This document shows positions 3,437-34,332 of a stretch of 64,000 nucleotides of DNA, in pieces. The position numbers and the translations under genes are program-made. A model generated the notes under the pieces. That model worked only from the letters and a program-made list of their open reading frames with translations. It was not told the origin of the DNA and searched no databases. This DNA is from Candidatus Woesearchaeota archaeon (GTDB taxonomy: Archaea; Nanobdellota; Nanobdellia; Pacearchaeales; GW2011-AR1), in assembly GCA_964544395.1 (NCBI GenBank), contig CAZJAO010000002.1, positions 5,071 through 69,070 of the forward strand. The letters run 5' to 3'. Within the stretch, counting starts at the first letter, position 1. Each line of letters opens with the position of its first letter.

Positions 3437-3498
3437 ATGTTTTTCTTAAAATATTGGTATATAAAAAGTTTTATAAATGTCTATGGACAGAGAATTTT

Positions 3499-3611: not shown

Positions 3612-3613
3612 TA

Positions 3614-7733: not shown

Positions 7734-7817
7734 GCAGGGATAGCGAAGTGGTCAAACGCGCGGGACTCAAGATCCCGTCCCTTAGTGGGTTCGGAGGTTC
7801 GAATCCTCTTCCCTGCA
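7734..7817 (+). tRNA. tRNA-Leu (anticodon CAA), class II
   Basis: Acceptor GCAGGGA/TCCCTGC. Anticodon arm CGGGA-CTCAAGA-TCCCG. Variable stem-loop present. T-loop GGAGG-TTCGAAT-CCTCT. Confidence 0.85.
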
Positions 7818-7853
7818 TCATGGCTCTTTAGAGACGTGCGATTGCATTTTTAT

Positions 7854-7928
7854 GCGTCCGTAGCTCAGCCTGGATAGAGCACCTCCGTCCTAAGGAGGGG
7901 GTCGTAGGTTCAAATCCTATCGGGCGCA
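7854..7928 (+). tRNA. tRNA-Arg (anticodon CCT)
   Basis: Acceptor GCGTCCG/CGGGCGC. Anticodon arm CCTCC-GTCCTAA-GGAGG. T-arm GTAGG-TTCAAAT-CCTAT. Confidence 0.8.
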
Positions 7929-7984
7929 TTCCTATTTGGCTGCACAGCAAATCTTTAAAACTCTATTATAATACATATTTTTAA

Positions 7985-8056
7985 GCGTGGGTAGTATAGC
8001 GGTTAGTATATCTGCCTTCCAAGCAGATGGTCCGGGTCCGACTCCCGGCCTACGCA
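7985..8056 (+). tRNA. tRNA-Gly (anticodon TCC)
   Basis: Acceptor GCGTGGG/CCTACGC. Anticodon arm TCTGC-CTTCCAA-GCAGA. T-arm CCGGG-TCCGACT-CCCGG. Confidence 0.75.
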
Positions 8057-8063: not shown

Positions 8064-9116
8064 ATGGAAGAAAAGAAAAAATTTATTTCAAGATTTAGGG
8101 AAGCTTACGACAAGCATTACAAACTTCTTATAATACTCACAGCACTGCTCATAATTCTTTCTTTTGCATCAATGGCGATTTTCTATGTGCATAATCATGA
8201 TTTTATTTACAAAGATATTTCTCTATTGGGTGGAACTTCTGTAACGGTTTATGGAACTAATTTTAACATAAATCAAATGAAGCAAGATCTGACAAAATCT
8301 TTGGGGGATATTGATATCAATTCTTTAAAAGATGTTTTTACACAGCAGCAGAAAGCCATTGTCATCCAAACAAGCTTGGATGCAAAAACAGTAAAGCCTA
8401 TTTTGGAAAGTTATCTGGGCTATAGTTTGACTGATCAAAATAGTAGTTTTGAATCTACAAGCTCTTCTCTTGGTAGCGGATTTTATCAACAACTTTTGGT
8501 TGCAGTTTTGATTGCTTTCAGTTTTATGGGTGTTGTTGTGTATTTCCTTTTCGGAAAAGGCAAGTGGATTAAAATGCTTTTAATCCTATTAGCAATTCTC
8601 TCACCATTTCTTTTCTTTGTATTAAGGGCAGTTTCAATTGACTTCGCATTAATTCTTTCTCTGGCTACACTCCTAGTCAGTCTATTTATTTATTGGAAAT
8701 TTAATGTTCCTAGCTTTGCAGTAGTACTATCGGCATTCGCAGATATTTTGATGACCTTAGTCGTTATTGATCTAATGGGTATGAAATTATCTTCTGCAGG
8801 TATAATTGCATTCCTGATGTTAATTGGGTATTCAGTGGATACAGATATTCTCCTTACCAATCGAGTGTTAAAAGCGACAACCGGTTCGGTTAATCATAGA
8901 ATTTTTGGCGCATTCAAAACAGGAATAACAATGACAATTACAGCAATACTTGCAGTTCTTGCTGCTTTGTTTTTGATAAGTTCATTTTCTAACACGATGG
9001 CACAAATCTTCACAATCCTCGCAATCGGATTATGCTTTGATATATACAATACTTGGATTACAAATGCTTGTATAATTAAATGGTATGCCACTAAGAAAAA
9101 TGAAATTAAATCTTAA
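8064..9116 (+). CDS. secF: Protein-export membrane protein SecF
   Basis: A TM segment precedes a periplasmic domain (DISLLGGTSVTV is like the GIDFTGG motif) and a 6-TM C-terminus. It lies immediately upstream of secD, as in archaea. Confidence 0.7.
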   Translation: MEEKKKFISRFREAYDKHYKLLIILTALLIILSFASMAIFYVHNHDFIYKDISLLGGTSVTVYGTNFNINQMKQDLTKSLGDIDINSLKDVFTQQQKAIVIQTSLDAKTVKPILESYLGYSLTDQNSSFESTSSSLGSGFYQQLLVAVLIAFSFMGVVVYFLFGKGKWIKMLLILLAILSPFLFFVLRAVSIDFALILSLATLLVSLFIYWKFNVPSFAVVLSAFADILMTLVVIDLMGMKLSSAGIIAFLMLIGYSVDTDILLTNRVLKATTGSVNHRIFGAFKTGITMTITAILAVLAALFLISSFSNTMAQIFTILAIGLCFDIYNTWITNACIIKWYATKKNEIKS

Positions 9117-10632
9117 ATTAACTTGGAAAATCTGGTTGCTGATTATATCCCTGATTTTAGCGCTTCTTTCTATCTTTGCTACTCCTTATTTATTTCAAAA
9201 TGGAGTTGTTATTTCTGGAATAACTCAAAATTCAACTGCTTCAGTGCAAGGATTCAAAGTGGGAGCAGTAATAAATTCAATTAATGGAAATCCTGTAAAA
9301 AATATAGATGATTATTCTACAATACTTCAAAATGTTTTCATCTCTAACAGCAGCCAAAAAGTTACATTTGGTACAAATCAGGGGCAGGTGATTTATTATT
9401 CAAATCTTCCTCCAGAGATAATTGTCAAGAGCATTTCCCCGACAAATCTTAAAACTGGTTTGGACCTTTCCGGAGGAGCAAGTGCACTAGTTAAGGCAGA
9501 GAATCAATCTTTGACTTCAGATCAGGCAAGTGAGATAGCTCAGATGATAAGTAACCGATTGAATGTTTATGGACTTGAAGACATAAAGGTTTCTCCAATT
9601 TCAGATTTGAGTGGAAATAATTACATCAGCATTCAGATTGCCGGTGCGACTCCTCAAGATTTGGATAATTTAATTTCTCAGCAAGGAAAGTTTGAAGCAA
9701 GAATCGGTGATCAAATAGTTTTCCAGGGAGAAAAGCAGGATATTTCCTCGGTTGCAACTTCAGGACAGCAGTCTGGTTTACAAACCTGCAATCAGCAAAC
9801 AGATGGCTCTTATACTTGCACCTTTAATTTTGCAGTTTATCTAAGTCAGACTGCTGCAACAAGAGCAGCTCAGCTTACGCAGAATCTTACAATTAATCAT
9901 ACCCCCAATGGGGATTATCTTTCCACGCCTCTTGATTTATACCTCGATGGCCAGAAAATAGACAGTCTGCAAATTAGTGCAGACCTCAAAGGAGTTGTTA
10001 CAACTCAAGTTTCGATCCAGGGTTACGGTATTGGAACAACTCAGACCAATGCTGTTGATAATGCCACATCTGAAATGAAAAGACTTCAGACAATACTTCA
10101 GACAGGAAGTTTACCATTCAAATTAGATATCGTTCAAGAAAATACGATCTCTCCACTTTTAGGTCAGAATTTCACAAATACTATTTTAATTGCTGCGGCA
10201 GTTGCAATCCTTGCAGTTTCAATTGTCATATTCATAAGATACAGAAAATTAAAAGAATCTCTAGCGGTGATATTAACAAGCGTTTCTGAAATAATCATTA
10301 TTTTAGGAATTGCAGCATTGATAGGATGGAATCTTGACCTGCCAAGTATTGCGGGAATATTAGCTACAATTGGAACAGGAATTGATAGCCAGATAATTAT
10401 TATTGATGAAGCAAGATCTAAGATCTTAAACATAAAACAAAGATTGAAAAGAGCATTCGCAATTATTCTGGGTTCTTACTTCACTGCATTCGTGTCCCTG
10501 ATTCCATTATACTGGGCTGTAGCAGGATTCTTTAAGGGATTTGCATTCACAACAATTATCGGAATAACTGTTGGAATATTGATAACAAGACCTGCATTCG
10601 TAGATATAATTAATAAGATTGAGAAAGATTAA
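9085..10632 (+). CDS. secD: Protein-export membrane protein SecD
   Basis: It has a large extracytoplasmic domain with GLDLSGGASALV (like GLDLRGG) and a C-terminal 6-TM bundle. Confidence 0.75.
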   Translation: MPLRKMKLNLKLTWKIWLLIISLILALLSIFATPYLFQNGVVISGITQNSTASVQGFKVGAVINSINGNPVKNIDDYSTILQNVFISNSSQKVTFGTNQGQVIYYSNLPPEIIVKSISPTNLKTGLDLSGGASALVKAENQSLTSDQASEIAQMISNRLNVYGLEDIKVSPISDLSGNNYISIQIAGATPQDLDNLISQQGKFEARIGDQIVFQGEKQDISSVATSGQQSGLQTCNQQTDGSYTCTFNFAVYLSQTAATRAAQLTQNLTINHTPNGDYLSTPLDLYLDGQKIDSLQISADLKGVVTTQVSIQGYGIGTTQTNAVDNATSEMKRLQTILQTGSLPFKLDIVQENTISPLLGQNFTNTILIAAAVAILAVSIVIFIRYRKLKESLAVILTSVSEIIIILGIAALIGWNLDLPSIAGILATIGTGIDSQIIIIDEARSKILNIKQRLKRAFAIILGSYFTAFVSLIPLYWAVAGFFKGFAFTTIIGITVGILITRPAFVDIINKIEKD

Positions 10633-10709
10633 GAATTAATTAATGTATATTTTGAAGAAGTGATTTTGAATATCATAATCTTTAAAAGTAAATTACTTTT
10701 TCTCTTAGT

Positions 10710-11702
10710 ATGAATAAAGTCTTGGTGGCTGGGGCTGCGGGATTCATAGGGCATCATCTTGTAAATTATCTTAAAGACCAAGGAAATTGGGTGAGGGGGG
10801 TCGATATAAAACCAATAGAATACCCGACACATGCCGATGATTTCTTACAAAGAGATTTGAGGAGTAGAGATAATTGTCTTGAAGCTTTAACTTTGCCTCA
10901 TGGAGAACCATTTGATGAAGTCTACCAACTTGCAGCGGACATGGGTGGTGCGGAGTACATTTTTAGTGGCAAACATGATCTTGATGTAATGCACAATTCA
11001 GCTCAGATAAATTTAAATTTTGCAGACTTAAATCAACTTTTCAAGAGACTATTTTATTCTTCGTCAGCTTGCATATATCCCCAAGATATACAAAAAGACG
11101 TAGAAAATACGGGCCTAAGAGAGGAATTTGCATATCCTGCAAATCCCGATTCCGAATATGGCTGGGAAAAAATTTTCAGTGAAAGATTATACCTTACTAT
11201 GATGAGAAATAAAGGTGTGCCCGTAAGAATCGCACGATTTCATAATATTTTCGGACCAGAGGGAACTTGGAAAGGGGGGAGAGAAAAAGCCCCGGCAGCT
11301 ATGTGCAGAAAAGTAGCAGAAGTAGAAAATGGGGGAAGAGTGGAAATATGGGGAGATGGAGAACAAACCAGATCTTTCTTATACATTGATGAGTGTGTTG
11401 AAGGAATCTACAAACTAATGCACTCAGATTTTACTGGTCCCGTTAATATCGGCTCTGAAGAAATGATTTCAATAACTAATCTTGTTTACATGGCCGCAGA
11501 TATTGCAGGGAAAAAAGTAGAAATACAGCATGACTTAAATCCAAATGCTCCTCTTGGAGTTAGAGGAAGAAATTCGCAAAACGATTTGATAAAAGAAAAA
11601 TTAAACTGGGCCCCCAGTTTTCCGCTTAGAAAGGGAATGGAAAAAACTTATTCGTGGGTTGAAGAACAAGTGAAAAAAGATATGAATGTTCATAAGGAAT
11701 AA
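10710..11702 (+). CDS. GDP-mannose 3,5-epimerase (GME-type extended SDR)
   Basis: VLVAGAAGFIGHH...YSSSACIYP...FHNIFGPEGTWKGGREKAPAAMCRKV...WGDGEQTRSF...VRGRNSQNDLIKEKLNWAP. The alignment with plant and bacterial GME is near collinear. Confidence 0.8.
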   Translation: MNKVLVAGAAGFIGHHLVNYLKDQGNWVRGVDIKPIEYPTHADDFLQRDLRSRDNCLEALTLPHGEPFDEVYQLAADMGGAEYIFSGKHDLDVMHNSAQINLNFADLNQLFKRLFYSSSACIYPQDIQKDVENTGLREEFAYPANPDSEYGWEKIFSERLYLTMMRNKGVPVRIARFHNIFGPEGTWKGGREKAPAAMCRKVAEVENGGRVEIWGDGEQTRSFLYIDECVEGIYKLMHSDFTGPVNIGSEEMISITNLVYMAADIAGKKVEIQHDLNPNAPLGVRGRNSQNDLIKEKLNWAPSFPLRKGMEKTYSWVEEQVKKDMNVHKE

Positions 11703-13164: not shown

Positions 13165-13863
13165 ATGACGGAAAAATATTCTAGCGTTGCAATTATTCCA
13201 TTCAAAGAAAACAGTGAGAGAGTTCCAGGAAAGAACTTTAAAACTTTTGGGGGACAGCCGCTTTATCAGCATATTATTCAGAAAGCTTTGAAGAGCAATT
13301 TGGAAAAAATATTCATATGTACAAACAGCGAATCCGCGAGAGAAGAAGTTAAAAAAATGGGCCCCCGAGTGGAGATTCTTGGATGTCCTGATTGGTACTT
13401 TGGCAAAACTATTACTGGAGATAAGTTACTATCTGTTCCCGCAAAGGCAATTGATGCGGATATTTATGTTCAACTTTTTGCTACAGCCCCTTTCTTAAGA
13501 CCAGAGACAATTAATGATGCCATAAGCACTCTTCAAGAGAGAACAGAGTATGATTCTGTTTTAACTGTAATGAATAAACATGATTGGGCCTGGTATAAGG
13601 GAAATCCTATTACATATTATCCGGGAAATCTTCCTCGTTCTCAGGATGCTTCGCCTCTTGTGGTTGAATCTACGGGATTATATGCTATGACAAAAGAATC
13701 TTTGTTAAATTTGCAAAGAAGAGTCGGAAATCATCCTTATTTTTTGGAAGTGGATGAAATAGAGGGTTGGGATATTGATACTCCATTACAATTTAAATTA
13801 GCTGAACTATTCATTGAAAATATAGGTGAGATGGAAAAACTAACTAACAAAAAATATTTTTAA
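13165..13863 (+). CDS. Acylneuraminate/CMP-sugar cytidylyltransferase family protein (NeuA/KdsB-like)
   Basis: The N-terminus VAIIPFKENSERVPGKNFKTFGGQPL matches the AIIPAR.xS.RxPxKN...G.PL motif of the CMP-sugar synthetase family. Confidence 0.65.
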   Translation: MTEKYSSVAIIPFKENSERVPGKNFKTFGGQPLYQHIIQKALKSNLEKIFICTNSESAREEVKKMGPRVEILGCPDWYFGKTITGDKLLSVPAKAIDADIYVQLFATAPFLRPETINDAISTLQERTEYDSVLTVMNKHDWAWYKGNPITYYPGNLPRSQDASPLVVESTGLYAMTKESLLNLQRRVGNHPYFLEVDEIEGWDIDTPLQFKLAELFIENIGEMEKLTNKKYF

Positions 13864-22435: not shown

Positions 22436-23209
22436 TTGGGGTCTTATCTTGTGCCAAGCTTTGGTTGCATGATACTTTTTGTTCCATGAAAATATCTTGC
22501 TTAAAAGAATATCGAGATAAATAACAAGTTTGGATTTCTTGAATCCATTGTTAATATCCCATATTCTTCTGGTTGTTGGAAATAAAACCCTATCTTCTGA
22601 TAGAATTTCCAATCCATTTTGAAGGATTATTTGTTTGAAAATATTTAATGGAATCCCTCTCTCTCTTAATGTTAAGCCCTTTCTCTCTTTTCTCCAATCC
22701 CCCATGGAAACTATTGGTTCTCTCAAAAGAATAAAGCCCCCTTTTTTTAGGATCCTCGTTAATTCCTGAATTACAAAGCTAATATTAGGTATGTGATGAA
22801 GAACAGCAAAACAGGTGATTAAATCAATGCTTCCCTCGGGCAAATCAATTTTGCCTGAAGCATTAGGTGAAATATATTCTATCTTCTTACCCCCTATTTT
22901 TCCGACTCTTAATTTATGAGATGGCTCTAAAATTATTACTTCCTTGATTCTATCTATTATTGGGAGGAGTTCATCTCCGGAAGCTCCTCCAAAACTAAGA
23001 ACTTTGCTAAATTCTTTTATCCTTTTTATTTTATTATACCCATGAATCTTATTGAGCTCATGAAACTCATAAAAATATGGGGCTTCGGAAATCAGTCCAG
23101 AATATCCTTCTTTTTCATCGTTAAACCATGCTTCAATTTGTTTTCTATTGAAATCATCCCCGTATAGTTTCTTACCTGAAAAATATTCTTCAAAATTTTC
23201 GTCTTTCAT
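22400..23209 (-). CDS. Class I SAM-dependent methyltransferase
   Basis: Methyltransf_11/23-like. GSIDLITCFAVLHHIPN...LKKGGFILLRE. Confidence 0.55.
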   Translation of the reverse strand: MKDENFEEYFSGKKLYGDDFNRKQIEAWFNDEKEGYSGLISEAPYFYEFHELNKIHGYNKIKRIKEFSKVLSFGGASGDELLPIIDRIKEVIILEPSHKLRVGKIGGKKIEYISPNASGKIDLPEGSIDLITCFAVLHHIPNISFVIQELTRILKKGGFILLREPIVSMGDWRKERKGLTLRERGIPLNIFKQIILQNGLEILSEDRVLFPTTRRIWDINNGFKKSKLVIYLDILLSKIFSWNKKYHATKAWHKIRPQSVFFVLRKKFV

Positions 23210-24285
23210 ATCTCTTTGTTAAAAATCTCAATTAATTTTCTTTCTGAAATCTCAAATTGGAAGTTCTTCTTGAAAAATTGCCTAATTTTATTTGAATCTA
23301 TTTTCTTTTTTGCCATGATTTTTAATTTTTCTGCTAGGCTGTTCCAATCTCCCCGTTTTGCCACATAGCCCAAAAAATCTTTCGACACCATCTCTTTTAT
23401 TGCTCCGGTATTATAAGATAAGACGGGAATTCCGAACATAAAAGATTCTAAAATAACTAAAGGAAAAGATTCATTCTCATATTGTGTCGGAAAGATAAGA
23501 GAATTTGCCTCGCTCAATACTTGCTCCTTCTCTTTTCCAAACTTGGGACCAAGATAAGTGCATTCTTTTTCCAAAGCGTATTCTTTTCTTAGCGAAAACC
23601 ATTTCTCTTCGGTTTCTTTATCTGGAAAACTTCCGACAAACAAGCACTTGAACTTAATTTGACTCTTTAATAAATTGCAAATTCTTAATGTATCTAATGC
23701 GCCCTTTGTTTCATACATATTAGACAAAAATAATAAAACTAATTCTTTTTTCTTTTTCCTATTGCTTAGAACCGCTTCAAACTTTTTATCATCTAGTTCG
23801 TCTTTTATCCCGTTTGGAACAAAGTAGACATGATCTTTATCAAAAATGGTTGACACTTCATCATAAAGTAAGGGAGAGAGTATAATCATCTTGCTGTTCC
23901 CAAAAACAAATTTTGCATATCTGGAAAATTTAAGTCCTTTAGTATGTGTTTGAAAGATAACTTTCTTTCCAAATAGTTTGCATTCCAGAACATAAATGCT
24001 GTCTCTTATAAATGCGAAACCTTTAACCGGAATCTCAAAATAAATTAAGTCTGGTTTGAATGAGATTAATTCTTTGAGCAGTTTAAAAAATACTGCAAAA
24101 GCACCCATGAACTTCTTGGCATTAATAGAACCCATCTCATCCAGTTTGTCAAAATAGTTAATTTTTATTTTTTTCAATTCAAAATTTTTATTCATCTCTT
24201 TTCCGTTGAAGTATAATTCATTCATTATGGATGCCCCGTGTGTTGGGGGGGGAAATCGACCTAAAAATAAAATTTTCTTTTTCAT
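23206..24285 (-). CDS. Glycosyltransferase family 4 (GT-B, retaining)
   Basis: The C-terminal E-x7-E motif is ESFPLVILESFMFGIPVL. Confidence 0.7.
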   Translation of the reverse strand: MKKKILFLGRFPPPTHGASIMNELYFNGKEMNKNFELKKIKINYFDKLDEMGSINAKKFMGAFAVFFKLLKELISFKPDLIYFEIPVKGFAFIRDSIYVLECKLFGKKVIFQTHTKGLKFSRYAKFVFGNSKMIILSPLLYDEVSTIFDKDHVYFVPNGIKDELDDKKFEAVLSNRKKKKELVLLFLSNMYETKGALDTLRICNLLKSQIKFKCLFVGSFPDKETEEKWFSLRKEYALEKECTYLGPKFGKEKEQVLSEANSLIFPTQYENESFPLVILESFMFGIPVLSYNTGAIKEMVSKDFLGYVAKRGDWNSLAEKLKIMAKKKIDSNKIRQFFKKNFQFEISERKLIEIFNKEI

Positions 24286-25010
24286 TCTATATATCTCAGG
24301 TATATTATTGCCTTTAAGCTTCTTAGCACTTTAGTCTTTGAATGTTTGAAATCGGTAATTAATCTATAAAACCATTCTAATCCGAGGGTGCTAAATATCT
24401 TTGGGGCCCTCTTCTTTTTTTCCAATAAAAAATCTAATCCTGCTCCAACATTAAAAAATAATTTTGTCTTATCAAATAGTTTATCCGTAAGGAAATTTTG
24501 TTTTGGGCATCCCAGTCCAATCCAGACGTATTCTATTTTTTTGGATTTGATAATCTCTGCAATTTTCTTTATTTCTTCCTCAGAAAATTCCCCTTCTTTT
24601 ATGTATGGCGGATTATAGCAGAATAAATTGCTCCTCTTAAGATAAGGATATTTTTTTAATATTTTTGTCAGGTCTTCTTCTTCCAGCCCAATAAATAACT
24701 GCCTTGAATTAGGAAGAACTTTATTTTCAAAAATCTGTTTTGTAAAATCAGGTCCCGTTAGTCTTTTTATCCTCCTTAAATTTTTGAGGGAAAGAAAAAG
24801 GGATACAACGAATCCGTCTATGAAATTAATAGTGTGGTCCTTGAATGTGTCTTTAAACTTTGTATCTTTAGCAAAGAAGAATAAGTCATGGGAATTGATG
24901 AAATTGAAAATATATTTATTTGGATCTGAAACTTTTTCCTTAAGAAAAGATTTCAAATCTCTAATTTCTGTGAAAGATAATTTCTTTTCCATTATTCTAT
25001 TTTTATCCAC
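24282..25010 (-). CDS. WecB/TagA/CpsF-family glycosyltransferase (GT26)
   Basis: RLTGPDF...QLFIGLEEED...VWIGLGCPKQNFL...NVGAGLDFL matches the GT26 conserved blocks. Confidence 0.7.
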   Translation of the reverse strand: MDKNRIMEKKLSFTEIRDLKSFLKEKVSDPNKYIFNFINSHDLFFFAKDTKFKDTFKDHTINFIDGFVVSLFLSLKNLRRIKRLTGPDFTKQIFENKVLPNSRQLFIGLEEEDLTKILKKYPYLKRSNLFCYNPPYIKEGEFSEEEIKKIAEIIKSKKIEYVWIGLGCPKQNFLTDKLFDKTKLFFNVGAGLDFLLEKKKRAPKIFSTLGLEWFYRLITDFKHSKTKVLRSLKAIIYLRYIE

Positions 25011-25879
25011 CCTTCTGGAAGACGGTCCTCCTCTTTCTCTACATTTGTAAATTGCATAAATTCTTTTGGAGCAATCACTATCTTTTTAGGATTCGGATTC
25101 AAATATCCTGCCCACCAGCTCAGAGCACTGTTCGCCAAAATATTATGTTTGCATAATTTCATGACTTCCAAAACATGATACCCCGTATTGGGACAATCTG
25201 AGTCTTCAATAAAATATAACTCCGCCCCCATATCTTTAAGGTTTTCTTTGCACCACTTAATATCGTCAGAAAAGACATAAAACTTGGCATTTTTTACTCT
25301 TTTATTGATTATCTCTATAGCTTTTTTATAATAACTAAGGTCAAGCACTGTTGCATTCTTCAAAGTCAATAAATCGCCTCTTCGGACGTGAAGGCTAATT
25401 GAATTTTCTTTTGAGATTTTATTCAACAGGGGCATTATGGGGGATCTATACTCTTCTCTTAGAGTGAATTCTCTCTTAATTTGGTCTTTTACATCCATAA
25501 AAAATTTTTCCCTGCCTAGATATCCCCGAAGATAAGAATTGTCTGGAATCTTATAAAAATCATCTAAAGAGCCGTGGCTCGGAAAATAAACGACGTTTCG
25601 GTCAAATAATTTGTATTTTCTTATAATTTTATCAATTGGCCTAAACCCAGTTTTAATTACAAACTTTCTTATCTCTTTTTTAGATGCTTCCTGGGCAGTG
25701 ATATTCAATTTTCCTAATTCAAATTCCCATAATCCGCCATATTTTTCCCATGTAGGCCACGACTTTAAATAAGTAGTATCCAATTTTAACTCGGTATGAT
25801 CATGTTTTGCAAGAGCCAATGCTGCCGCATACACATACATTGAATTTCCAAGCCCTCTTCCGATTTCTGTGATTATCAT
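24992..25879 (-). CDS. Alpha-1,2-fucosyltransferase-family glycosyltransferase (GT11)
   Basis: GRGLGNSMYVYAAAL (GGLGNQMFQYA motif), SLHVRRGDLL (HxRRGDY), YVFSDDIKWCKENL and ILANSALSWWAGYL..PKKIVIAPK are all GT11 signatures. Confidence 0.8.
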   Translation of the reverse strand: MIITEIGRGLGNSMYVYAAALALAKHDHTELKLDTTYLKSWPTWEKYGGLWEFELGKLNITAQEASKKEIRKFVIKTGFRPIDKIIRKYKLFDRNVVYFPSHGSLDDFYKIPDNSYLRGYLGREKFFMDVKDQIKREFTLREEYRSPIMPLLNKISKENSISLHVRRGDLLTLKNATVLDLSYYKKAIEIINKRVKNAKFYVFSDDIKWCKENLKDMGAELYFIEDSDCPNTGYHVLEVMKLCKHNILANSALSWWAGYLNPNPKKIVIAPKEFMQFTNVEKEEDRLPEGWIKIE

Positions 25880-26967
25880 TTTAATGCGCCTTCATAAATC
25901 ATTCTTAATTTATTATTCCTGGATTCTATTGAAAATTTGCCTGTTTTTATTTCATTTAAGCAATTTTTTGACATAGTCTCTCTGAGATTACCCTCTTTTA
26001 TTAGTTTTTCTGTGTTTTCTTCCAATTTATTTATTAAATCAGAATAATCACTTATATTATTCAAATGTGAAACATCGAAATTCTCTGGTTCTTCAATAAC
26101 AAAACCTGTTTTATTATTTGTTATTATCTCTCTTCGAGACAGCCCTCCTACTGTTACAACTGGCAATCCAAAGCTCATGGCTTCTGTTAATCCAAAACCA
26201 AAAGTATCTGTATAAGAGGGATAAACAAAAATATCCGCCTTGGGATAAATTTCTTTAAACAATCTCTCTTGAGAGACAAATCCCAAAAATTCTATTTTGC
26301 TGTTTGCCGAATAATTCTTTTTAATTTCTTCCGAAACATCAGAGACAATTATTCCATAAACATTTTCGTGCTTCTTTGTCAATCTATCAATAACTTCCAA
26401 GGCATGCAATCCTCCCTTAAAGATAAATCTTCTTGAAGAAAATAGGAGGGTTATTCTTTTTGATTCTTTTCTAACAAATTTCCTAATAGGTATTCCTGGA
26501 TAAACAATCTTTATTTTATTGCTAATTTCAGGAAATTCTTTTGAAATACCGTCTGCAGACCATTGAGTCCATGCCAATATCTTTTTGCAATAATCACTTT
26601 CTAAAATCTTTAGAATAGCTTTCTTATTATTAATTCTCCCCGACGCCCAGAATTGATTCACATACTCTACATCACATACCCATGGATTTTTATTAAGGCT
26701 TAAACAATGTGCGCAATGAATAAGGTCATATCCTCTTTGCGTTTTTGTTAAATGTGCATTAGGCAATCCCGGCATTAGCTTTAAGATTTTTTTTATATAA
26801 TGTTTTATTTTCTGTTGTAATCTCAATTTCTTTCCACTTTGGATTAATTCAAAGTCCTCCGCATTTACGTACTGAACGTTATCTGGCGGATTTTGCCTAA
26901 GATATAAATAATAGGGAGAATCAGAAAATTTCCAAGGACTTTGTAGATAAACTTTTATTTTATTCAT
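25876..26967 (-). CDS. Glycosyltransferase family 4 (GT-B)
   Basis: FGFGLTEAMSFGLPVV is an E-x7-E-like motif in a GT-B C-terminal domain. Confidence 0.65.
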   Translation of the reverse strand: MNKIKVYLQSPWKFSDSPYYLYLRQNPPDNVQYVNAEDFELIQSGKKLRLQQKIKHYIKKILKLMPGLPNAHLTKTQRGYDLIHCAHCLSLNKNPWVCDVEYVNQFWASGRINNKKAILKILESDYCKKILAWTQWSADGISKEFPEISNKIKIVYPGIPIRKFVRKESKRITLLFSSRRFIFKGGLHALEVIDRLTKKHENVYGIIVSDVSEEIKKNYSANSKIEFLGFVSQERLFKEIYPKADIFVYPSYTDTFGFGLTEAMSFGLPVVTVGGLSRREIITNNKTGFVIEEPENFDVSHLNNISDYSDLINKLEENTEKLIKEGNLRETMSKNCLNEIKTGKFSIESRNNKLRMIYEGALK

Positions 26968-27003: not shown

Positions 27004-28491
27004 TTATTTTTTATTTGCTTCATTAATCTGGTCTATAATCTTTCTCAGTTCCAAATCCCTTCCTTTTTTCTCCTCTTCTGTCACTCCCCATTCGGCAGTT
27101 ATAGAATCTTCCAATGCAACCCATGCATGGGTTTTATTTGCAGGAATTTTTATTGATTCCCCCATGGACAGCACCTTCTCTTCATCACCAAGAAGAAGTT
27201 TTATTCTTCCCTTAACAATAACAAGATATTCATCTCTGGGATGAAGGCATCCGCCTCTGGCATAGCCTGTCTTTGTTTCTAAAAAGGTAAACTCTTTGTT
27301 ATTTTCTAAAAGGTTGCTTATCAAGTAAATGTATCCTCTATTGTCTTCATGTATCTTCTTCATATTCAATCCTGAATTGTAGAACTCCTTAATCTTCTCA
27401 CTGATGTAATTTATCTGTTCTGAAGTGATTGCTGAACCATTTGGAAGCCAGAGTATATTCTTGGATAAAAAGGATGAATTAGGAAAATCTGAATCATTGC
27501 CCTGATTCTTGTAAGGAGGATTAATGTGGACTGCAGGCCAGCATTCTCTCGCGGAAATTTCATTTTTGATTAAAAATTCAACAAGAGCAGTTCGATTATT
27601 TGCGATTATCTCAATCCATAAGGGAATTTCTTCAGAGTTATAAGCTGGAAATTTAACTTCCCTAATGTCCTTTAATGCATTTTGATATAATGCTCTTTGA
27701 TTTGACAGCATCTGTTTTTTACTTTCAATTTTTCTGAACTGTGCAAGAGCTAATGCAGCAGATAGGTCATTGAATTTTAAATTATAACCAACTTTTTCAT
27801 GGATGAATTCTTTATTGCTGAATCTTCCAAAATCTCTCAATCTCCTAAGAGCTTCATAATACTTGTCATCATCTGTAACAATTATGCCCCCCTGGCCGCT
27901 TGTGATTATTTTGTTGGATTGTAATGAAAAGATTCCCATTTTGCCGATTGTTCCTAAATATTTGCCAGATTGGTCTTTAGAGCCCAAAGCACCCGCTGCA
28001 TCTTCAATTACTGTAAGATTATGTTTTGAAGCCAAATTCATGAGCTCATTCATATCTGCAGATCTTCCAAGAATATGGACGGGAATTATTGCAATTGTTT
28101 TTTCATTTATTTTTTCTTCAATTTTACTAATATCAATTGTTGCTCTTTCTTTTTCAACATCTACTAAAACTGGTTTTCCACCAGCCCACTCTACAGAAGT
28201 AGCAGTGGCAATCATTGTCAAATCCGGAACAATGACTTCAAAATCTTCTTTATTTCTTATGATAGCATCAGCTTTAATTGCAAGAAATAATGCCGCAGTC
28301 GCATTTGTTGTTAGAAGGACATGCTTCACCCCAAGATATTTTTTCAATTCCTCTTCAAGCTGTTTTGTTTTTGGTCCTTCATTCACGTAACCTGCATTTA
28401 GTACTTCAGTAACTTCTTTGATTTCTTCGTCTCCAAACTTCGGTTCATTCCAATTAATTCGAACCATATTAAAAGTCATACATAGTATCAT
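27004..28491 (-). CDS. Fusion of a DegT/DnrJ/EryC1/StrS-family PLP-dependent sugar aminotransferase (N-terminal, about 370 aa) with a C-terminal cupin domain.
   Basis: The aminotransferase part has IPVHILG, DAAGALG and FSLQSNKIITSGQGG (Schiff-base Lys region). The C-terminal 120 aa has cupin His/Glu motifs (GGCLHPRDEYLVIVKG...HAWVALE). Confidence 0.65.
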   Translation of the reverse strand: MILCMTFNMVRINWNEPKFGDEEIKEVTEVLNAGYVNEGPKTKQLEEELKKYLGVKHVLLTTNATAALFLAIKADAIIRNKEDFEVIVPDLTMIATATSVEWAGGKPVLVDVEKERATIDISKIEEKINEKTIAIIPVHILGRSADMNELMNLASKHNLTVIEDAAGALGSKDQSGKYLGTIGKMGIFSLQSNKIITSGQGGIIVTDDDKYYEALRRLRDFGRFSNKEFIHEKVGYNLKFNDLSAALALAQFRKIESKKQMLSNQRALYQNALKDIREVKFPAYNSEEIPLWIEIIANNRTALVEFLIKNEISARECWPAVHINPPYKNQGNDSDFPNSSFLSKNILWLPNGSAITSEQINYISEKIKEFYNSGLNMKKIHEDNRGYIYLISNLLENNKEFTFLETKTGYARGGCLHPRDEYLVIVKGRIKLLLGDEEKVLSMGESIKIPANKTHAWVALEDSITAEWGVTEEEKKGRDLELRKIIDQINEANKK

Positions 28492-28855
28492 TTACTTCAG
28501 GAGAAACAAAAGGTTCTTCAGTGCATCCTATCATGGTTGTTCCTTTTTTTACAAATACTTTATGTGCTACCTGTGCTGGAATTAAAATACTACAATTCGC
28601 TTTTAAGGAATAATTATTCTCTTCTTTTGTTTCTATATCGACAAGTTGGATATCTAATTCTCCGTCAATAACGTAAAGCAATTCCTGATATTTATGAAAA
28701 TGTCCTGCTAATTGGGCGTCTTGATGAATCTTGTAAACCTTGGTTTGTTTTGCTGTAAAACCTCCAAAATCACCGTTAAATGCAGTAGAAAGGGTTCTTC
28801 TTGCATCTTCATGGTCAATTCCTCTCTCTTGAAAAATGACTTTGTCTATTGTCAT
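28469..28855 (-). CDS. FdtA/WxcM-like cupin, a candidate NDP-4-keto-6-deoxyhexose 3,4-ketoisomerase.
   Basis: 128 aa with HFHKYQELLYVIDGELDIQLVD...AHKVFV. Size and motifs resemble FdtA/QdtA. Confidence 0.55.
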   Translation of the reverse strand: MTIDKVIFQERGIDHEDARRTLSTAFNGDFGGFTAKQTKVYKIHQDAQLAGHFHKYQELLYVIDGELDIQLVDIETKEENNYSLKANCSILIPAQVAHKVFVKKGTTMIGCTEEPFVSPEVNDTMYDF

Positions 28856-29940
28856 TTTACCAATGCTCTCCCTAATTCTCTTCCTTTTTCAATATAGAAA
28901 TCATCGGGATGTTCTTCATGCATTGGGACAATTCCTTTTTCTTTCATTTTATCTTTTAAATCTGATGCAATCATCATCTTTACTAATTCTTTAAACTTAA
29001 TTTTAGGTTCCCAGCTAAGAATATTCTTTGCCTTTGAAGAATCGCCAAGTAACGCTGGAACTTCTGCCGGTCTTTTGTAATTATCACTTACTTTAACGTA
29101 ATCTTCCCAATTTAATCCAAGCAAGTCAAATGCTTCCTGAACAAATTCTCTTACACTATGTGTCTCTTTTGTTGCTATAACAAAATCATCAGGAACATCA
29201 TGTTGCAAGATCCTCCAGATAGCTTCAACGTATTCTTTTGAAAATCCCCAATCTCTCTTAGCTTCCAAATTTCCCAAAGACAAATCTTTTTCTTCCCCTA
29301 CAATTATTTTTGCAATGCCTAAAGTAACTTTTCTCGTCACAAAATTCAAACCTCTCCTTGGAGACTCGTGGTTGAATAAAATTCCGTTGGATGCGAAAAT
29401 CCCATATGCCTTTCTGTACATTCTTGTTAAATGATACGCAGCCAATTTAGAAATTCCATAAGGGCTTTGGGGAATCATAGGGGTCCATTCATTTTGAGGT
29501 GGTGGAGAAATTCCAAACATTTCACTTGAAGAGGCTTGATAATATTTGCACTTCAAATTCATATCTCTTATTGCCTCTAGAATTCTTAATGGACCCAAAG
29601 CATTGTAATTAAGCGTAGATTCTGGGTTCTCAAAGCTTATTCCTACGTGGCTTTGTGCAGCCATATTGTATATTTCATCAGGATTAATCTTTTCTAAAAC
29701 ATTTCTTATGCTTGAAGAATCTGATAAGTCTCCATAAAGTAAAAAGAATGGAGATTCATCTGTTTTTCCGAATTGTGTATCATATTTGTCTAAGTGGTCA
29801 ATTCTCTTAGTATTTGGAAAACTTGCTCTTCTTATAACTCCTCTCACATAATATCCCTTTTCAAGAAGTAATTCTGCAAGATAGCTTCCATCCTGTCCGC
29901 TTATACCAAAAATTAAAGCAACTTTTCTTCCATTTATCAT
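28852..29940 (-). CDS. gmd: GDP-mannose 4,6-dehydratase
   Basis: ALIFGISGQDGSYLAELLLEKGYYVRGVIRRASFPNTKRIDHL...YQASSSEMFG...ILFNHESPRRG...LGNLEAKRDWG. Collinear with Gmd. Confidence 0.9.
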   Translation of the reverse strand: MINGRKVALIFGISGQDGSYLAELLLEKGYYVRGVIRRASFPNTKRIDHLDKYDTQFGKTDESPFFLLYGDLSDSSSIRNVLEKINPDEIYNMAAQSHVGISFENPESTLNYNALGPLRILEAIRDMNLKCKYYQASSSEMFGISPPPQNEWTPMIPQSPYGISKLAAYHLTRMYRKAYGIFASNGILFNHESPRRGLNFVTRKVTLGIAKIIVGEEKDLSLGNLEAKRDWGFSKEYVEAIWRILQHDVPDDFVIATKETHSVREFVQEAFDLLGLNWEDYVKVSDNYKRPAEVPALLGDSSKAKNILSWEPKIKFKELVKMMIASDLKDKMKEKGIVPMHEEHPDDFYIEKGRELGRALVK

Positions 29941-30006: not shown

Positions 30007-30534
30007 CTATTTTAAGACTTCCAGTTCGTATTCCATTTCTGAAGAAGGCAATATCCATGCAAAAAATCTGCAGTAAAATTCCTGATTAAGATTTATTATT
30101 GGATTAAAAAGCCAGTTTAATCTGCCTGAACGACCTATTCCGAAATTAATTTTTATTTTTCGGGCTTTGAACATATCCTTGTCTGTTCCAACTTCATGAG
30201 AATACGTCCCCTTCTGAAAGTAAGTGAATGTTCTTGGAGAAAAGAATCTTACATGTGTCGGGTCGTTGTATTGCCCCCAGGCAGAATAGAAGGGAGTTTT
30301 TACATGGATAATTGCGCCATTCTTGCATACCCTATGCAAATCATGCATCAAAGGGATAAAATTCTTGATATGTTCCAGAACATGATAAGCCATAACTCCA
30401 TCTATAGAATCGTCCTTAAATGGCAGGGGTGTTTTTTCCAAATCACAAACCTTGTCAGGATTAACTAGGGGAGAAGAGTCTACATTTACATATCCTTCTC
30501 GTTTGTCACGCCCGCAACCAATATTTAATTTCAT
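30007..30534 (-). CDS. Class I SAM-dependent methyltransferase
   Basis: MKLNIGCGRDKREGYVNVDS and VMAYHVLEHI are Methyltransf_11/23 motifs. Confidence 0.55.
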   Translation of the reverse strand: MKLNIGCGRDKREGYVNVDSSPLVNPDKVCDLEKTPLPFKDDSIDGVMAYHVLEHIKNFIPLMHDLHRVCKNGAIIHVKTPFYSAWGQYNDPTHVRFFSPRTFTYFQKGTYSHEVGTDKDMFKARKIKINFGIGRSGRLNWLFNPIINLNQEFYCRFFAWILPSSEMEYELEVLK

Positions 30535-33287
30535 GCTGTTACTGTTAAATTATCAAATGCTCCATAAGTGCCAGATGTCTGGGTAAATTCTGCTTTAGAT
30601 AGAATATTTGAAGGATAGTTTGTTTTCCAGATTTTTATTGGACCATCAAATCCATTGTAATAAATAAAATCTCCCGTGAATCCTTGAGCCTTTAAACCTT
30701 GCAATAAAGAGTCATCTTGTGCATGAGCTAAAGTTATTGTAGGATACTCATTGAACGGATCATTCATTAAATAAAGTTGCGCAAACAAGCTGTTGAAAAC
30801 TTTTGGAGAAAGATATATTGCAGCGCCAAAGTTGTCAATCTGGATGCCTCCTGCAGCAGTCTGCCCGAGACTAGAAAGAACATATGCTGCTCCTGCATTT
30901 CCGCTCCCGAAATCAACTAATTTGTTATTGAAATAAAGATATCTTAAAGGAACACTAATTTGCTGACCATTATAATAAACAACTTCCTGTGGTTGTGAAA
31001 AAGAAATTGCACCCGTTGAATTGGTCTGATTTGAGTTTAAGACAAGTGCGATTACATAAGCCTGTCCCTGGGGGATTAATATCTGCCCTTGTGAAGTATT
31101 GTATATCATATCTTGGTCTATGGGCACAACGTATTGATATACTCTCGTTGTAGTCCCATTGATTGTCTGAGTCTGGCTTGGACTGGATGGAAATACTTGA
31201 ACTGTCGAAGCCCGGTCACTCAAAGTAGCATCGCTCCCAATAAGAGAATAAGCAGAATATTTTCCTAAATCAGTAGGGTCTATCAATAGATAAGAAACAT
31301 TGTTTGATTTCATAAAGCTAAGAGCGAGATTTGGATTGGGTTCTGTTAGAACATATCTACCAATCATATAATCTCTGAATGTTCCTTCAAAATGTCCGCC
31401 ATCAGAGAGAGTCGGTCTTTGACCTAAATATTCAATAGCATACCCATAATCCCACCAATGAACAAATACCGACCCAAGAGGGGTGCTGTTTCTGACCCAA
31501 GCCATTGCATCGTCCCATTGAGATCCGTAACTTCCTATGCCCATGTATTTGGCCTGATATGAAGAAGAACTGTACAAAGTGTAGAAACTTATGGCTGTTG
31601 CTATTATTGCAGCAATTAATAATACCGCCAAAACCATCTTCAATAGATCATCTTTGCTTTTCTTGAAATAACTTGCAAGATTAAATATCAAATAACCAAC
31701 AAAGATGCACATGTATGGACTTACAATTGACATTATGTAAGCAGCAGTATTCGCCGCGATAATCATGACTAATATCGTTGAAAATAAAACTAATAGCTCT
31801 GGCGAAATTTCAATATGGTCTTTGAAATAGAGATAAATGCAATAGCAGAAGAAGATAATCATGCTCCCAAATAAAAATAATTTACTGAGGAAACTTGACC
31901 CGTTTAAAATTGCACTGCTTGCAGAAATTCTGCTTAATAATATTCCCGAGATAAGTAAAATCCAAGAGAGTACAAACCAGACTCTTCTTTTTTTCTCTTT
32001 AATTCCCATTGATAAATTAATACCCAAGGTTATCAAACCGGCAAAAAATAACCAGAAGAAAATTTTATCTGTTTGAGATATCCAATCAGTAGTATACGTT
32101 TGCTGGTTTTCTGCAACAGTGATACTTAGTCTATCTGCACCAAGAGGATGGAAAATTTGTGTAGTAACATTAGAAATAAATGAAAATAGACTTCCCTGTA
32201 ACGTTATTATTATTAGACCCAATAATCCTGCGATTATAATTCCCCAGATTACATGATTCCTCTTCAACTTTTTTAAGGGAGTCTTGTCTGCAAATTTTAT
32301 AATTAAAAAATCTACTATAATAAATAATAGGGTGAAAGATAACAGGAAGCTGGTTGGATTTATGAGGACCCTGTTTAATGCAGAATTTAGTGGAAAACCA
32401 AATACATATGTGCCCAATAAACTAAACAAGACAAAAGCGATGTAGAAAATTAAAAATTTAGGCAAGTCTTTTGCTTCTGTCTCCAGATTCTTAGCTTTCA
32501 AAACCCACACTATGAAAAAGCTTAAGGGAACAATCATAGGAAGAAACTCTGAGATTCCTCCCCAGCTGACAATGTTCAGTGCAGTAAGAGCTCCAATGGC
32601 AATTCCTAGCAAAAGACTGATTAATAATACCTTTTTTGGTTTTTTATGTTCTTCTTTTTTCTTGCTTAACCACTTTAAGGCGCAGGTGTAAGACAGTAGT
32701 ACTGCAAAGAAAATCATAGTTCCAAGAGCATCATGGTCGGAGAATCCCGCCACACTTCGATATAAATAAGTAGGTATTACTGTTAAAAATAACGCCCCGA
32801 TTATAGCCGCCAGCTTAGACTTTGTTAGAATATAAATGAGAAAGTAAAAGATAACTAGCCCTATAGCAAAGCCGATTACAGGATAAATTACATCAACGAA
32901 ATTCAATGTGATACTGCCATTAAATGCATGAACAAATTTGTATAAATCCACTAAAACATAAGGGAGAATCTCTGAAGAAAAAGGAATGTTTCCCGCGCCA
33001 GCTCTAATGGTATCAATTGCAGGAAGGTGACCAGTTTGCAGAATTATTGATGCCTCTCTTAACCAATAAAAGCAATCCAGCTCTAGCTGAGGCACATATT
33101 GCCCGGTAGTATGATCAATAAGTGATGGAAGATTTTGCAGCCTCATAAGAACCGCAACTATGACAATAATCGCTAATAGCACCAAAGAGAGTATGGTCAT
33201 TAACTTTTTTTGTTGGAAAAATTTTGAAACCTTATGAAAACTCTCTTTTGTCTTGTTAAGATTGAGTTTAATTTCTTCTTCTGGCAT
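30531..33287 (-). CDS. aglB: Oligosaccharyltransferase AglB (STT3 family)
   Basis: A roughly 13-TM N-terminal domain precedes a C-terminal soluble domain carrying the diagnostic WWDYGY motif (VHWWDYGYAIEY). 918 aa. Confidence 0.85.
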   Translation of the reverse strand: MPEEEIKLNLNKTKESFHKVSKFFQQKKLMTILSLVLLAIIVIVAVLMRLQNLPSLIDHTTGQYVPQLELDCFYWLREASIILQTGHLPAIDTIRAGAGNIPFSSEILPYVLVDLYKFVHAFNGSITLNFVDVIYPVIGFAIGLVIFYFLIYILTKSKLAAIIGALFLTVIPTYLYRSVAGFSDHDALGTMIFFAVLLSYTCALKWLSKKKEEHKKPKKVLLISLLLGIAIGALTALNIVSWGGISEFLPMIVPLSFFIVWVLKAKNLETEAKDLPKFLIFYIAFVLFSLLGTYVFGFPLNSALNRVLINPTSFLLSFTLLFIIVDFLIIKFADKTPLKKLKRNHVIWGIIIAGLLGLIIITLQGSLFSFISNVTTQIFHPLGADRLSITVAENQQTYTTDWISQTDKIFFWLFFAGLITLGINLSMGIKEKKRRVWFVLSWILLISGILLSRISASSAILNGSSFLSKLFLFGSMIIFFCYCIYLYFKDHIEISPELLVLFSTILVMIIAANTAAYIMSIVSPYMCIFVGYLIFNLASYFKKSKDDLLKMVLAVLLIAAIIATAISFYTLYSSSSYQAKYMGIGSYGSQWDDAMAWVRNSTPLGSVFVHWWDYGYAIEYLGQRPTLSDGGHFEGTFRDYMIGRYVLTEPNPNLALSFMKSNNVSYLLIDPTDLGKYSAYSLIGSDATLSDRASTVQVFPSSPSQTQTINGTTTRVYQYVVPIDQDMIYNTSQGQILIPQGQAYVIALVLNSNQTNSTGAISFSQPQEVVYYNGQQISVPLRYLYFNNKLVDFGSGNAGAAYVLSSLGQTAAGGIQIDNFGAAIYLSPKVFNSLFAQLYLMNDPFNEYPTITLAHAQDDSLLQGLKAQGFTGDFIYYNGFDGPIKIWKTNYPSNILSKAEFTQTSGTYGAFDNLTVTA

Positions 33288-33327: not shown

Positions 33328-34332
33328 TCAAAGATTATTAGTAATAATTAGAGCCAATATGATTATCACTATTTGAAATCCGTTTATTAAATTGACAACA
33401 TCTTTTTCATATACTTTGTGGCTTAGCTTTACTTTCTTTAATATTATTATCGCTAAATGTTCCAGCCCGTAAACTTTATCATAGGCTAAATCAAGGCTTC
33501 CATCTTCATTTGGTTTGCCAAAGCTTTGTTTTTTCAATCTTCCTCTTGATTTTAATACCATTTCAATTATGTAGGGAATGAAGAATAAAACTGCAACTAA
33601 TTCCAAGCCGCCGATAATTGCTACTGCTGCGAACATCAAACCAATAGCATAAGTCATGGTATTGCCTGCAAAAACTCTTGCGGGATATCTGTTAAATATG
33701 TAGAATGCAATTAGAGCAGCCACCATGATTAAAGCAATGAGACTTAGCCAGCTTTCATTATGCATATATGCAACAAATGCAAGCGCAGATAAAATTAAGA
33801 TTCCTTGTCTTGCTTCCAGTCCATTATATCCTGCTAAAAAATTATATGTCGTGGTTGCACCAACAACTCCGATTGGAATTGCTATCAAAGGATATAACAA
33901 TCCAATGTTAATTCCAAATATTGAAGAATTTCCTGCATTGATTACCATTAACGGTACGGCCGAGAATAAAATAAGAATTAGCCTCGAACGAATTGACAAG
34001 CCTCCTCTTTTCCAGCCAAACAAATCATCAATCAATCCAACTCCGGTTACTAAGAATAAAGAGCTTACTATTGCAAAAATCAGTATTAAAGTTCCATCGT
34101 CTGGTGACTTGAAATAAAATGTCCTGATTGCAATATACAAGAAAATACCGACGAGAGTTCCAAGAATTACAATAATTCCGCCTGAACCTGCCACATTTCT
34201 TTCTCTTTTAGGCTTGTTCATATCTTCCCACACCAAATCTATTTGTTTTGCTTTCTTAATCCACATAGGCATTATTAAAAGAGTCACAAAGAAACTGATA
34301 AGAATTGTCCCGAATAATAATGGTTCAACCAT
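33328..34332 (-). CDS. UDP-GlcNAc:dolichyl-phosphate GlcNAc-1-phosphate transferase family (MraY/WecA/AglH-like GPT)
   Basis: It is polytopic, with IDDLFGW (DDxxG), NFLAGYNGLE (NxxDGxDGL-like) and VFAGNTMTYAIG (VFMGDTGS-like). Confidence 0.7.
   Translation of the reverse strand: MVEPLLFGTILISFFVTLLIMPMWIKKAKQIDLVWEDMNKPKRERNVAGSGGIIVILGTLVGIFLYIAIRTFYFKSPDDGTLILIFAIVSSLFLVTGVGLIDDLFGWKRGGLSIRSRLILILFSAVPLMVINAGNSSIFGINIGLLYPLIAIPIGVVGATTTYNFLAGYNGLEARQGILILSALAFVAYMHNESWLSLIALIMVAALIAFYIFNRYPARVFAGNTMTYAIGLMFAAVAIIGGLELVAVLFFIPYIIEMVLKSRGRLKKQSFGKPNEDGSLDLAYDKVYGLEHLAIIILKKVKLSHKVYEKDVVNLINGFQIVIIILALIITNNL

Follow-up and report, generated by a model that had tools for sequence, protein, structure and literature searches.

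Few single enzymes open a route to L-hexoses. GDP-mannose 3,5-epimerase (GM35E/GME) is among them, and to our knowledge its characterized members all come from plants, apart from one bacterial enzyme. Does an open reading frame resembling it in an archaeal stretch of DNA encode a genuine member of the family, and, if so, which glycosyltransferase would use its product? We sought to answer both questions from the window (the whole 64-kb stretch of DNA analyzed) and from related loci elsewhere.

An epimerase gene at the edge of an archaeal N-glycosylation island

The frame at 10710..11702 (plus strand) is unbroken from ATG to stop and encodes 330 aa. Both peptides quoted in the first-pass annotation, FHNIFGPEGTWKGGREKAPAAMCRK and WGDGEQTRSF, were found in its translation, and a glycine-rich NAD-binding motif of the form GxxGxxG (GAAGFIG) occupies residues 8–14. 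The gap of 77 nt that separates it from secD contains TTTAAAA, a possible archaeal TATA box for the gene. One ENA assembly series contained the identical protein on 15 contigs, of which the longest measures 121.7 kb. The features of the locus are as follows.

10681..10687, plus strand: TTTAAAA, possible archaeal TATA box ~26 nt upstream of the epimerase ATG, read from the sequence only
10710..11702, plus strand: GDP-mannose 3,5-epimerase (GM35E/GME) homologue, 330 aa
11727..13109, plus strand: Wzx/AglR-like polysaccharide flippase, starting 24 nt after the epimerase stop
13165..13863, plus strand: CTP_transf_3 cytidylyltransferase, last gene of the plus-strand unit
Middle block, between the plus- and minus-strand genes: SDR, 2-hydroxyacid dehydrogenase, GFO/IDH/MocA, methyltransferases
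Middle block: 905-aa fusion of an SDR and a C-methyltransferase
23206..24285, minus strand: GT4-family glycosyltransferase (GT4a)
24282..25010, minus strand: WecG/TagA/CpsF-family glycosyltransferase
24992..25879, minus strand: GT11-family glycosyltransferase (fucosyltransferase family; PF01531, HVRRGD, FSDD)
25876..26967, minus strand: GT4-family glycosyltransferase (GT4b), 4-nt overlap with GT11
27004..28855, minus strand: DegT-family aminotransferase–cupin fusion and a separate 128-aa cupin
28852..29940, minus strand: GDP-mannose 4,6-dehydratase (Gmd; NCBIfam equivalog, 433.5 bits vs cut-off 415)
30531..33287, minus strand: AglB/STT3 oligosaccharyltransferase, WWDYG at residues 611–615
33328..34332, minus strand: Glycos_transf_4 (AglH/WecA-like) sugar-1-phosphate transferase, the initiating enzyme

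The window is archaeal, encoding prefoldin, a Sec61-type SecY with plug, an EMC3/TMCO1-like insertase, an L10P insertion domain, Spt5-NGN, an Rpb3-type RpoD and FtsZ, and its host is an uncultured DPANN-like archaeon. The glycan island covers ~24 kb, with the epimerase at one edge after secF-secD and, at ~34.3 kb, AglB (WWDYG) and the AglH-like transferase at the far end. Its GC content (0.34) equals that of the window (0.346), and nothing in the base composition therefore suggests that the island was acquired recently from a foreign source. On the plus strand the flippase is probably co-transcribed with the epimerase, and a relative with 80% identity has the same grouping of GME, flippase and cytidylyltransferase. 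The minus-strand string reads AglH-AglB-MT-Gmd-cupin-DegT-GT4-GT11-WecG-GT4-MT and is tightly packed (overlaps of 4–23 nt or gaps <70 nt). STT3/AglB with WWDYG, an initiating sugar-1-phosphate transferase and a flippase are all in one locus; the island is an AglB-centered N-glycosylation island, and a GME gene is associated with such genes in other DPANN genomes too (L001 and L008). The first-pass description of an archaeal glycan island was thus borne out by the archaeal marker genes and by the AglB, AglH-like, flippase and glycosyltransferase genes in the window.

The true Gmd encoded in the island shows that GDP-mannose is available in the cell as a substrate pool. The DegT–cupin fusion and the separate cupin are likely a GDP-6-deoxy-amino-sugar branch that consumes the Gmd product; a PDB sequence search with the 128-aa cupin returned no match. 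No GDP-fucose synthase and no ManC/ManB were found in the 64-kb window; as the window shows just this part of the genome, a gene for GDP-fucose synthase or for GDP-mannose pyrophosphorylase could lie outside it. Searching for ManC/ManB in 80 GME loci and the window gave essentially no signal either way.

The epimerase is a member of the GM35E clade

We then examined the family membership of the protein. Its top PDB sequence match was Arabidopsis GME (AtGME, 2C59; E 1.1e-87, 297 bits), aligning query residues 3–324 with chain residues 31–345 with small gaps only, which agrees with the first-pass claim that the frame is nearly collinear with GME. The best family other than GME was UDP-xylose synthase (E 1.6e-23, 86 bits), and judged by sequence the AtGME match is far beyond chance. 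Identity to AtGME was 49.4% over 308 aligned residues; for the biochemically validated bacterial enzyme MfGM35E it is 50.5% (PMC6678494). Pfam returned matches to the generic PF01370 and PF16363 only, and no NCBIfam model scored above its cut-off (Fcl equivalog NF047922, 89 bits vs 500; GalE TIGR01179, 59 bits vs 262). Since neither collection gave a GME-specific match, membership was tested via residues, tree and structure.

The AtGME residues that define GM35E are S143, C145, Y174, K178, N203, K217, R243 and R306: S143/Y174/K178 form the triad, C145/K217 the acid–base pair, R306 acidifies the Cys, R243 binds the diphosphate and N203 is a conserved Asn, while GMER (Fcl) has His for the GM35E Lys and Lys for the GM35E Arg, and GalE is without the acid–base pair (PMC8787198). 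Once a +2 offset of the PDB chain numbering had been corrected, all eight were found kept in the archaeal protein (S119, C121, Y150, K154, N179, K193, R221 and R287). The [ST]...Yx3K triad for C4 oxidation/reduction is S119, Y150 and K154, the Cys acid/Lys base pair is C121 and K193, and R306, R243 and N203 correspond to R287, R221 and N179, respectively. Each defining residue is kept in 191–208 of 210 full-length homologues, with C121 in 203/210 and K193 in 200/210. In the columns of C145/K217/R306, E. coli Fcl has C/V/K and GalE has T/G/Y. The blocks lining the AtGME active site are near-identical as well (LAADMGG, SSACIYP, YGWEK, RFHNIFGP, GGREKAPAAMCRK, WGDGEQTRSF and GVRGRNS). A reading of NAD vs NADP preference from the acidic D32 after beta-2 was dropped, as Fcl, GalE and Gmd also align D at this position.

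A neighbor-joining (NJ) tree was built from 50 sequences: the query, AtGME, 40 homologues chosen across the identity range, E. coli Fcl, Gmd and GalE, and the window's three other SDRs. The query, AtGME and the 40 homologues formed one clade in 50/50 bootstraps, from which Fcl, Gmd, GalE and the three window paralogues were excluded equally often (50/50), with Fcl as the nearest outgroup. An AlphaFold2 model (pLDDT 88.4, pTM 0.89) predicted a Rossmann-type fold, and its 14 best Foldseek matches in the PDB were all GME entries, from Arabidopsis and Myrciaria dubia (TM 0.88, E ~1e-36); UDP-xylose synthases (UXS) and 4-epimerases came next in the list, from 5e-25 downwards.

These results bear directly on a reading of the protein as a generic, GalE-like UDP-glucose/UDP-GlcNAc 4-epimerase, which would suit both the generic Pfam matches and the NCBI label 'NAD-dependent epimerase/dehydratase family protein'. 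Yet TIGR01179 scored 59 bits vs 262, GalE fell outside the clade in every bootstrap replicate, the Cys, Lys and Arg absent from GalE are present, and structural matches to 4-epimerases were at least 13 orders of magnitude weaker than those to GME. Residues, tree and structure refute this reading, and we give it a negligible probability. The first-pass annotation had named the enzyme GME, with phylogeny and GME-specific catalytic residues as checks; both were run, and the frame grouped with AtGME and not with GalE (50/50 bootstraps) and retained 8/8 residues. Taken with the distance to the validated bacterial enzyme, the residues, tree and structure make membership of the GM35E clade secure, and GM35E activity would be expected on these grounds. 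The protein adds a new and so far uncharacterized archaeal representative to an enzyme family that is already known and widespread.

GME genes are common in uncultured bacteria and archaea

How widely are such genes distributed? The first-pass annotation had called the family rare in prokaryotes, a statement that did not hold. In a word-index search, at least 8000 word-sharing proteins matched at E≤1e-20, the best of them from Nanoarchaeota, Pacearchaeota, Parcubacteria, Nomurabacteria, Kiritimatiellales and Ferruginibacter, and several matches were already labeled GDP-D-mannose 3',5'-epimerase by JGI. An exhaustive search of 50%-identity representatives gave 823 clusters at E≤1e-30. In GTDB, a relative is encoded by at least 586 species representatives, across many bacterial phyla and DPANN archaea; among the GTDB matches listed were Acidobacteriota, Bradyrhizobium, Planctomycetota, Verrucomicrobiota, many CPR/Patescibacteria and DPANN archaea. 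GME genes are therefore common in uncultured bacteria and archaea. The impression of rarity can be traced to UniProt, in which a mere 18 bacterial sequences were annotated as GM35E in 2019 (PMC6678494).

The closest relatives of the window protein are DPANN (Pacearchaeota-like). In a taxon-labeled NJ tree it groups with the DPANN sequences of loci L001, L002 and L085, and this group is nested within the bacterial radiation, whereas the plant enzyme falls outside it, a placement on internal branches without bootstrap values. Given the wide spread in CPR bacteria and DPANN archaea, the name 'plant vitamin-C enzyme' reflects history: most of the family is prokaryotic, and it is tied to surface glycans. 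The description of the family as uncharacterized in archaea stands, as the literature searched contained no paper characterizing an archaeal GM35E; it likewise contained nothing relevant on L-galactose in DPANN or on a prokaryotic L-galactosyltransferase. A review of GM35E advises looking at Archaea, and its sole archaeal mention is a suspected GME-like step behind the Thermoplasma L-gulose lipid (PMC8787198).

A GT11-family transferase recurs beside GME

GT11 enzymes are GDP-L-fucose-dependent fucosyltransferases. The first-pass annotation had placed one in a cluster with the epimerase and linked the two. The transferase is indeed present (PF01531: E 4.7e-33, 115 bits vs cut-off 23.9), with the family motifs HxRRGD and FSDD appearing as HVRRGD at residue 164 and FSDD at residue 203, and GT11–GME adjacency elsewhere makes the link plausible; in the window itself, however, the two genes are 13.3 kb apart and on opposite strands.

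Among GME-centered loci, a GT11 gene was found within 10 kb in 4/80 species, all four CPR. The GT11–GME distance was <1 kb in two of these four, and none of the four contains Gmd or Fcl. A GT11-centered survey with the window's GT11 found 80 metagenome loci (725 kb in total), five of which encode a genuine GME with all catalytic residues and >250 bits (L093, L094, L148, L152 and L158). On one strand, L093 reads NUDIX-MT-Gmd-DegT/cupin-GT4b-GT11-FkbM methyltransferase-GME; L094 reads GT4b-GT11-200 bp-GME and L158 reads GT11-163 bp-GME. An FkbM methyltransferase follows GT11 in L093 and L152, and the GT4b-GT11 pair is kept beside GME in L093 and L094. The latter two are the nearest GT11 relatives with sufficient flanking DNA, and in both GME comes right after GT11; in L091 and L092, the closest GT11 relatives (on short contigs), the order is GT4b-GT11-WecG(-GT4a), the same as in the window. 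In related organisms the window's block Gmd-DegT-GT4b-GT11 leads straight into GME; the window has the same parts, only rearranged.

Fcl was absent from all five GME-bearing GT11 loci, and ~10 other GT11 loci have Fcl, none of them with GME. This split fits a donor swap but is consistent with it rather than significant, as an overlap of 0 would be expected by chance about half the time (about P = 0.5). GDP-L-galactose is accepted by fucosyltransferases (PMC8787198). Together, the GT11–GME adjacency and the lack of a GDP-fucose synthase at such loci make GDP-L-galactose a plausible donor for the window's GT11. Going further, we tentatively propose that the GT11 subfamily of the window, L093, L094 and L158 may be a dedicated L-galactosyltransferase fed by GME and not by Gmd/Fcl.

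Other possible fates for the epimerase product

The epimerase product might instead go to another transferase, with GT11 using GDP-L-fucose made elsewhere or by the cupin and SDR of the island. GT11 is found in only 4/80 GME-centered loci, and the Woesearchaeota MAG locus L008 (GT8-AglB-WecG-x-GME-AglH-SpoIIM) shares the AglB-AglH-SpoIIM backbone of the window with GME inserted into it, between AglB and AglH. L008 lacks GT11 but encodes a GT8 and a WecG-like GT, so a transferase other than GT11 can take the product at that locus. A WecG-like GT adjoins GME both in L008 and in the DPANN locus L001 (SecF-SecD-...-Wzx-...-GME-WecG-GT4), and lies ≤1.2 kb from GME in L001, L008, L047 and L067. However, the usual role of WecG/TagA enzymes is to attach the second sugar to GlcNAc-PP-lipid, with UDP-ManNAc(A) as donor; this accounts for their place beside AglH/AglB without any GME link. 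As for the source of GDP-L-fucose, the Gmd, the free cupin and a 299-aa SDR of the window might together lead to a 6-deoxy-L-hexose by an RmlC/RmlD-like route, and the cupin and SDR could in principle yield GDP-L-fucose without a canonical Fcl. Against this, the 299-aa SDR is without the Cys and the His/Lys of Fcl-type enzymes and resembles a UDP-HexNAc 4-epimerase. With GME directly after GT11 in the closest adequately flanked relatives (L093 and L094) and no Fcl at any GME-linked GT11 locus, we regard this explanation as unlikely.

Two further alternatives concern the reaction itself. In the first, a GME-clade protein would act on a different GDP-sugar (GDP-D-glycero-alpha-D-manno-heptose), or would carry out a single epimerization so that GDP-L-gulose or GDP-altrose is the product used. 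Both compounds are known side products released by GM35E (PMC8787198, PMC9602106). In contigs with the 80%-identical relative (L086 and L087), the GME-flippase-cytidylyltransferase genes lie near SIS (GmhA-like) and HAD/PNK3P (GmhB-like) genes and a fused NTP-transferase/GHMP-kinase (HddA-HddC-like), which together form a GDP-heptose gene set. Heptose-pathway genes are nevertheless missing from the window and rare in the 80 GME loci, the AtGME active-site blocks are near-identical, and the true Gmd of the island indicates that GDP-mannose itself is available; we consider this alternative improbable.

In the second, the GME-like protein would stand in for Fcl after Gmd, coupling C3/C5 epimerization of GDP-4-keto-6-deoxy-mannose with C4 reduction to give GDP-L-fucose for GT11. 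Gmd without Fcl does occur together with GME and GT11 in the window, L093, L148 and L152, and in the tree the GME clade has Fcl as its closest outgroup. Yet the discriminating residues are all of GM35E type (the base is Lys not His, and Arg is not replaced by Lys), the score against the Fcl equivalog is 89 bits vs a cut-off of 500, the CPR loci have GME and GT11 without Gmd, and the DegT aminotransferase after Gmd in the window, L093 and L152 already accounts for the Gmd product. Net reduction needs exchangeable NAD(P)H, as an Fcl-like reaction would, unlike the tightly bound NAD+ of GM35E. A stand-in for Fcl is thus very improbable.

A proposed route to an L-galactose-containing glycan

The reading that we prefer, and hold to be likely, is that of a GDP-mannose 3,5-epimerase at the edge of an N-glycosylation island whose product is most likely used by the GT11. 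The following scheme proposes a substrate and product for the epimerase, a donor for GT11 and a destination in N-glycans. By homology to AtGME, the NAD+-bound enzyme would oxidize C4 of GDP-alpha-D-mannose with Ser119/Tyr150/Lys154; Cys121 and Lys193 would then invert C5 and C3 through enolate intermediates, with Arg287 lowering the pKa of the Cys, and reduction of the 4-keto group would give GDP-beta-L-galactose and some GDP-L-gulose. The epimerase gene heads a short plus-strand unit with the Wzx/AglR-type flippase. GT11, whose gene stands in one co-directional run with those of AglB and AglH, is the most likely user of GDP-L-galactose, and its transfer of L-galactose to the lipid-linked glycan would pull the unfavorable equilibrium. 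L-galactose would thereby replace L-fucose on the dolichol-linked glycan, which the Wzx-like protein may flip before AglB transfers it to surface proteins.

The epimerase probably supplies an unusual L-sugar for a cell-surface glycan, which would contain L-galactose or L-gulose; a GM35E in an AglB island would add one of these to the known sugars of archaeal protein glycans. The GT11–GME pairing that recurs in archaeal/CPR surface-glycan loci is the element added here, and it suggests natural L-galactosylation by an enzyme of the fucosyltransferase family. Were the dedicated L-galactosyltransferase to prove real, DPANN archaea and some CPR bacteria would carry L-galactose on their surface glycans, N-linked or otherwise; in view of the FkbM methyltransferase after GT11 in L093 and L152, the sugar might be O-methylated. 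L-galactose would then be reported for the first time from a protein glycan of archaea, and GT11 would gain a new natural donor specificity. That GT11 and GME recur together at loci lacking a GDP-fucose synthase also points to two enzymes that naturally work as a pair, one supplying GDP-L-galactose and the other acting as L-galactosyltransferase, a combination wanted for making L-galactosides (PMC8787198).

Comparison with known systems

The island resembles archaeal agl clusters in its AglB with WWDYG, AglH-like transferase, Wzx/AglR-like flippase, several glycosyltransferases and sugar-modifying enzymes. In the literature searched, no GM35E or GT11 was reported in a characterized agl cluster, and L-galactose was not among the reported archaeal N-glycan sugars. 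Fcl (GMER/WcaG) belongs to a sister SDR family that also epimerizes C3/C5 of a GDP-4-keto-hexose with a catalytic Cys, but it has a His base, Lys for Arg and an NADPH-dependent net reduction, whereas the epimerase has the GM35E versions.

MfGM35E of Methylacidiphilum fumariolicum was the first bacterial GM35E to be characterized (PMC6678494). The archaeal protein shares with it the prokaryotic short form, a similar distance to the plant enzyme (50.5% for MfGM35E vs 49.4%) and a presumed role in surface glycans (LPS in that case); the hosts differ, as MfGM35E is from a bacterium and the window protein groups with DPANN sequences inside the bacterial radiation. The plant enzymes of Arabidopsis (2C59, 2C54) and Myrciaria dubia (8SG0) have the same extended-SDR fold (TM 0.88), and plant GME is collinear with the archaeal protein at 49% identity, with 8/8 catalytic or substrate-binding residues and the motifs kept. 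At 330 aa vs 377, the archaeal enzyme is missing the plant extensions of ~28 residues at the N-terminus and ~30 at the C-terminus, and it has GxxGxxG where the plant enzyme has GxxGxxA. Their settings differ too: plant GME serves ascorbate and cell-wall synthesis, whereas the archaeal gene lies in a surface-glycan island.

Sugar-modifying enzymes of the glycan island and its relatives

We found a 905-aa fusion protein in the glycan island:
18,653-21,370 (-), fusion protein, with PF08421, PF13489 and PF08484 in its C-terminal part

The N-terminal portion consists of an SDR that resembles NDP-hexose 4,6-dehydratases, and these three families make the C-terminal part a TylC3/TcaB9-type NDP-hexose C-methyltransferase. 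This composition suggests that the archaeal glycan contains a branched-chain C-methyl deoxysugar. Counterparts in the related loci L086 and L085 are 755 aa long or split as 565 + 179 aa.

Two further island proteins lacked any Pfam family:
15,779-17,134 (-), 451-aa protein
21,503-22,435 (+), 310-aa protein

The sole match of the 451-aa protein was a weak one to TIGR04396 ('surface carbohydrate biosynthesis protein'). Relatives of both are present in glycan loci L086 and L087 (46% and 54% identity), and both are uncharacterised glycan-island components.

In these same two loci, whose GME is 80% identical to that of the window, heptose-pathway genes follow the GME-flippase-cytidylyltransferase trio:
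L086 8,402-14,111, trio and heptose-pathway genes
L087 5,418-11,127, trio and heptose-pathway genes

The set, comprising SIS (GmhA-like), HAD/PNK3P (GmhB-like) and a 684-aa NTP-transferase/GHMP-kinase fusion, is the GDP-D-glycero-D-manno-heptose pathway, which is absent within the 64-kb window.

In two GME-linked metagenome loci, GT11 is followed, with no gene between, by an FkbM-family methyltransferase:
L093 7,267-8,166
L152 7,870-8,556

This adjacency hints that the GT11-added sugar is O-methylated. None of the three small methyltransferases in the window's island (17,124-17,729, 22,400-23,209 and 30,007-30,534) is of FkbM type.

Adjoining the GT11-GME block of L093 is a GDP-mannose 4,6-dehydratase:
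L093 1,271-3,661 (+), single 796-aa ORF

Its Gmd domain is parted into two halves by an insert of ~385 aa with a weak LAGLIDADG match, which is probably an intein.

RNA genes and SecD

Upstream of the island, the following features were identified in the window:
3,499-3,612, lone 5S rRNA gene, adjoining tRNA-Leu (pair 3,352-3,612)
7,734-8,056, tRNA-Leu/Arg/Gly cluster, upstream of secF
9,085-10,632 (+), SecD homologue

With no 16S or 23S rRNA gene within the 64 kb, the rRNA genes appear unlinked. SecD bears an N-terminal PDZ-like domain (PF17820/PF00595, scores just below and around gathering), and its relative in the DPANN locus L085 carries the same N-terminal domain.
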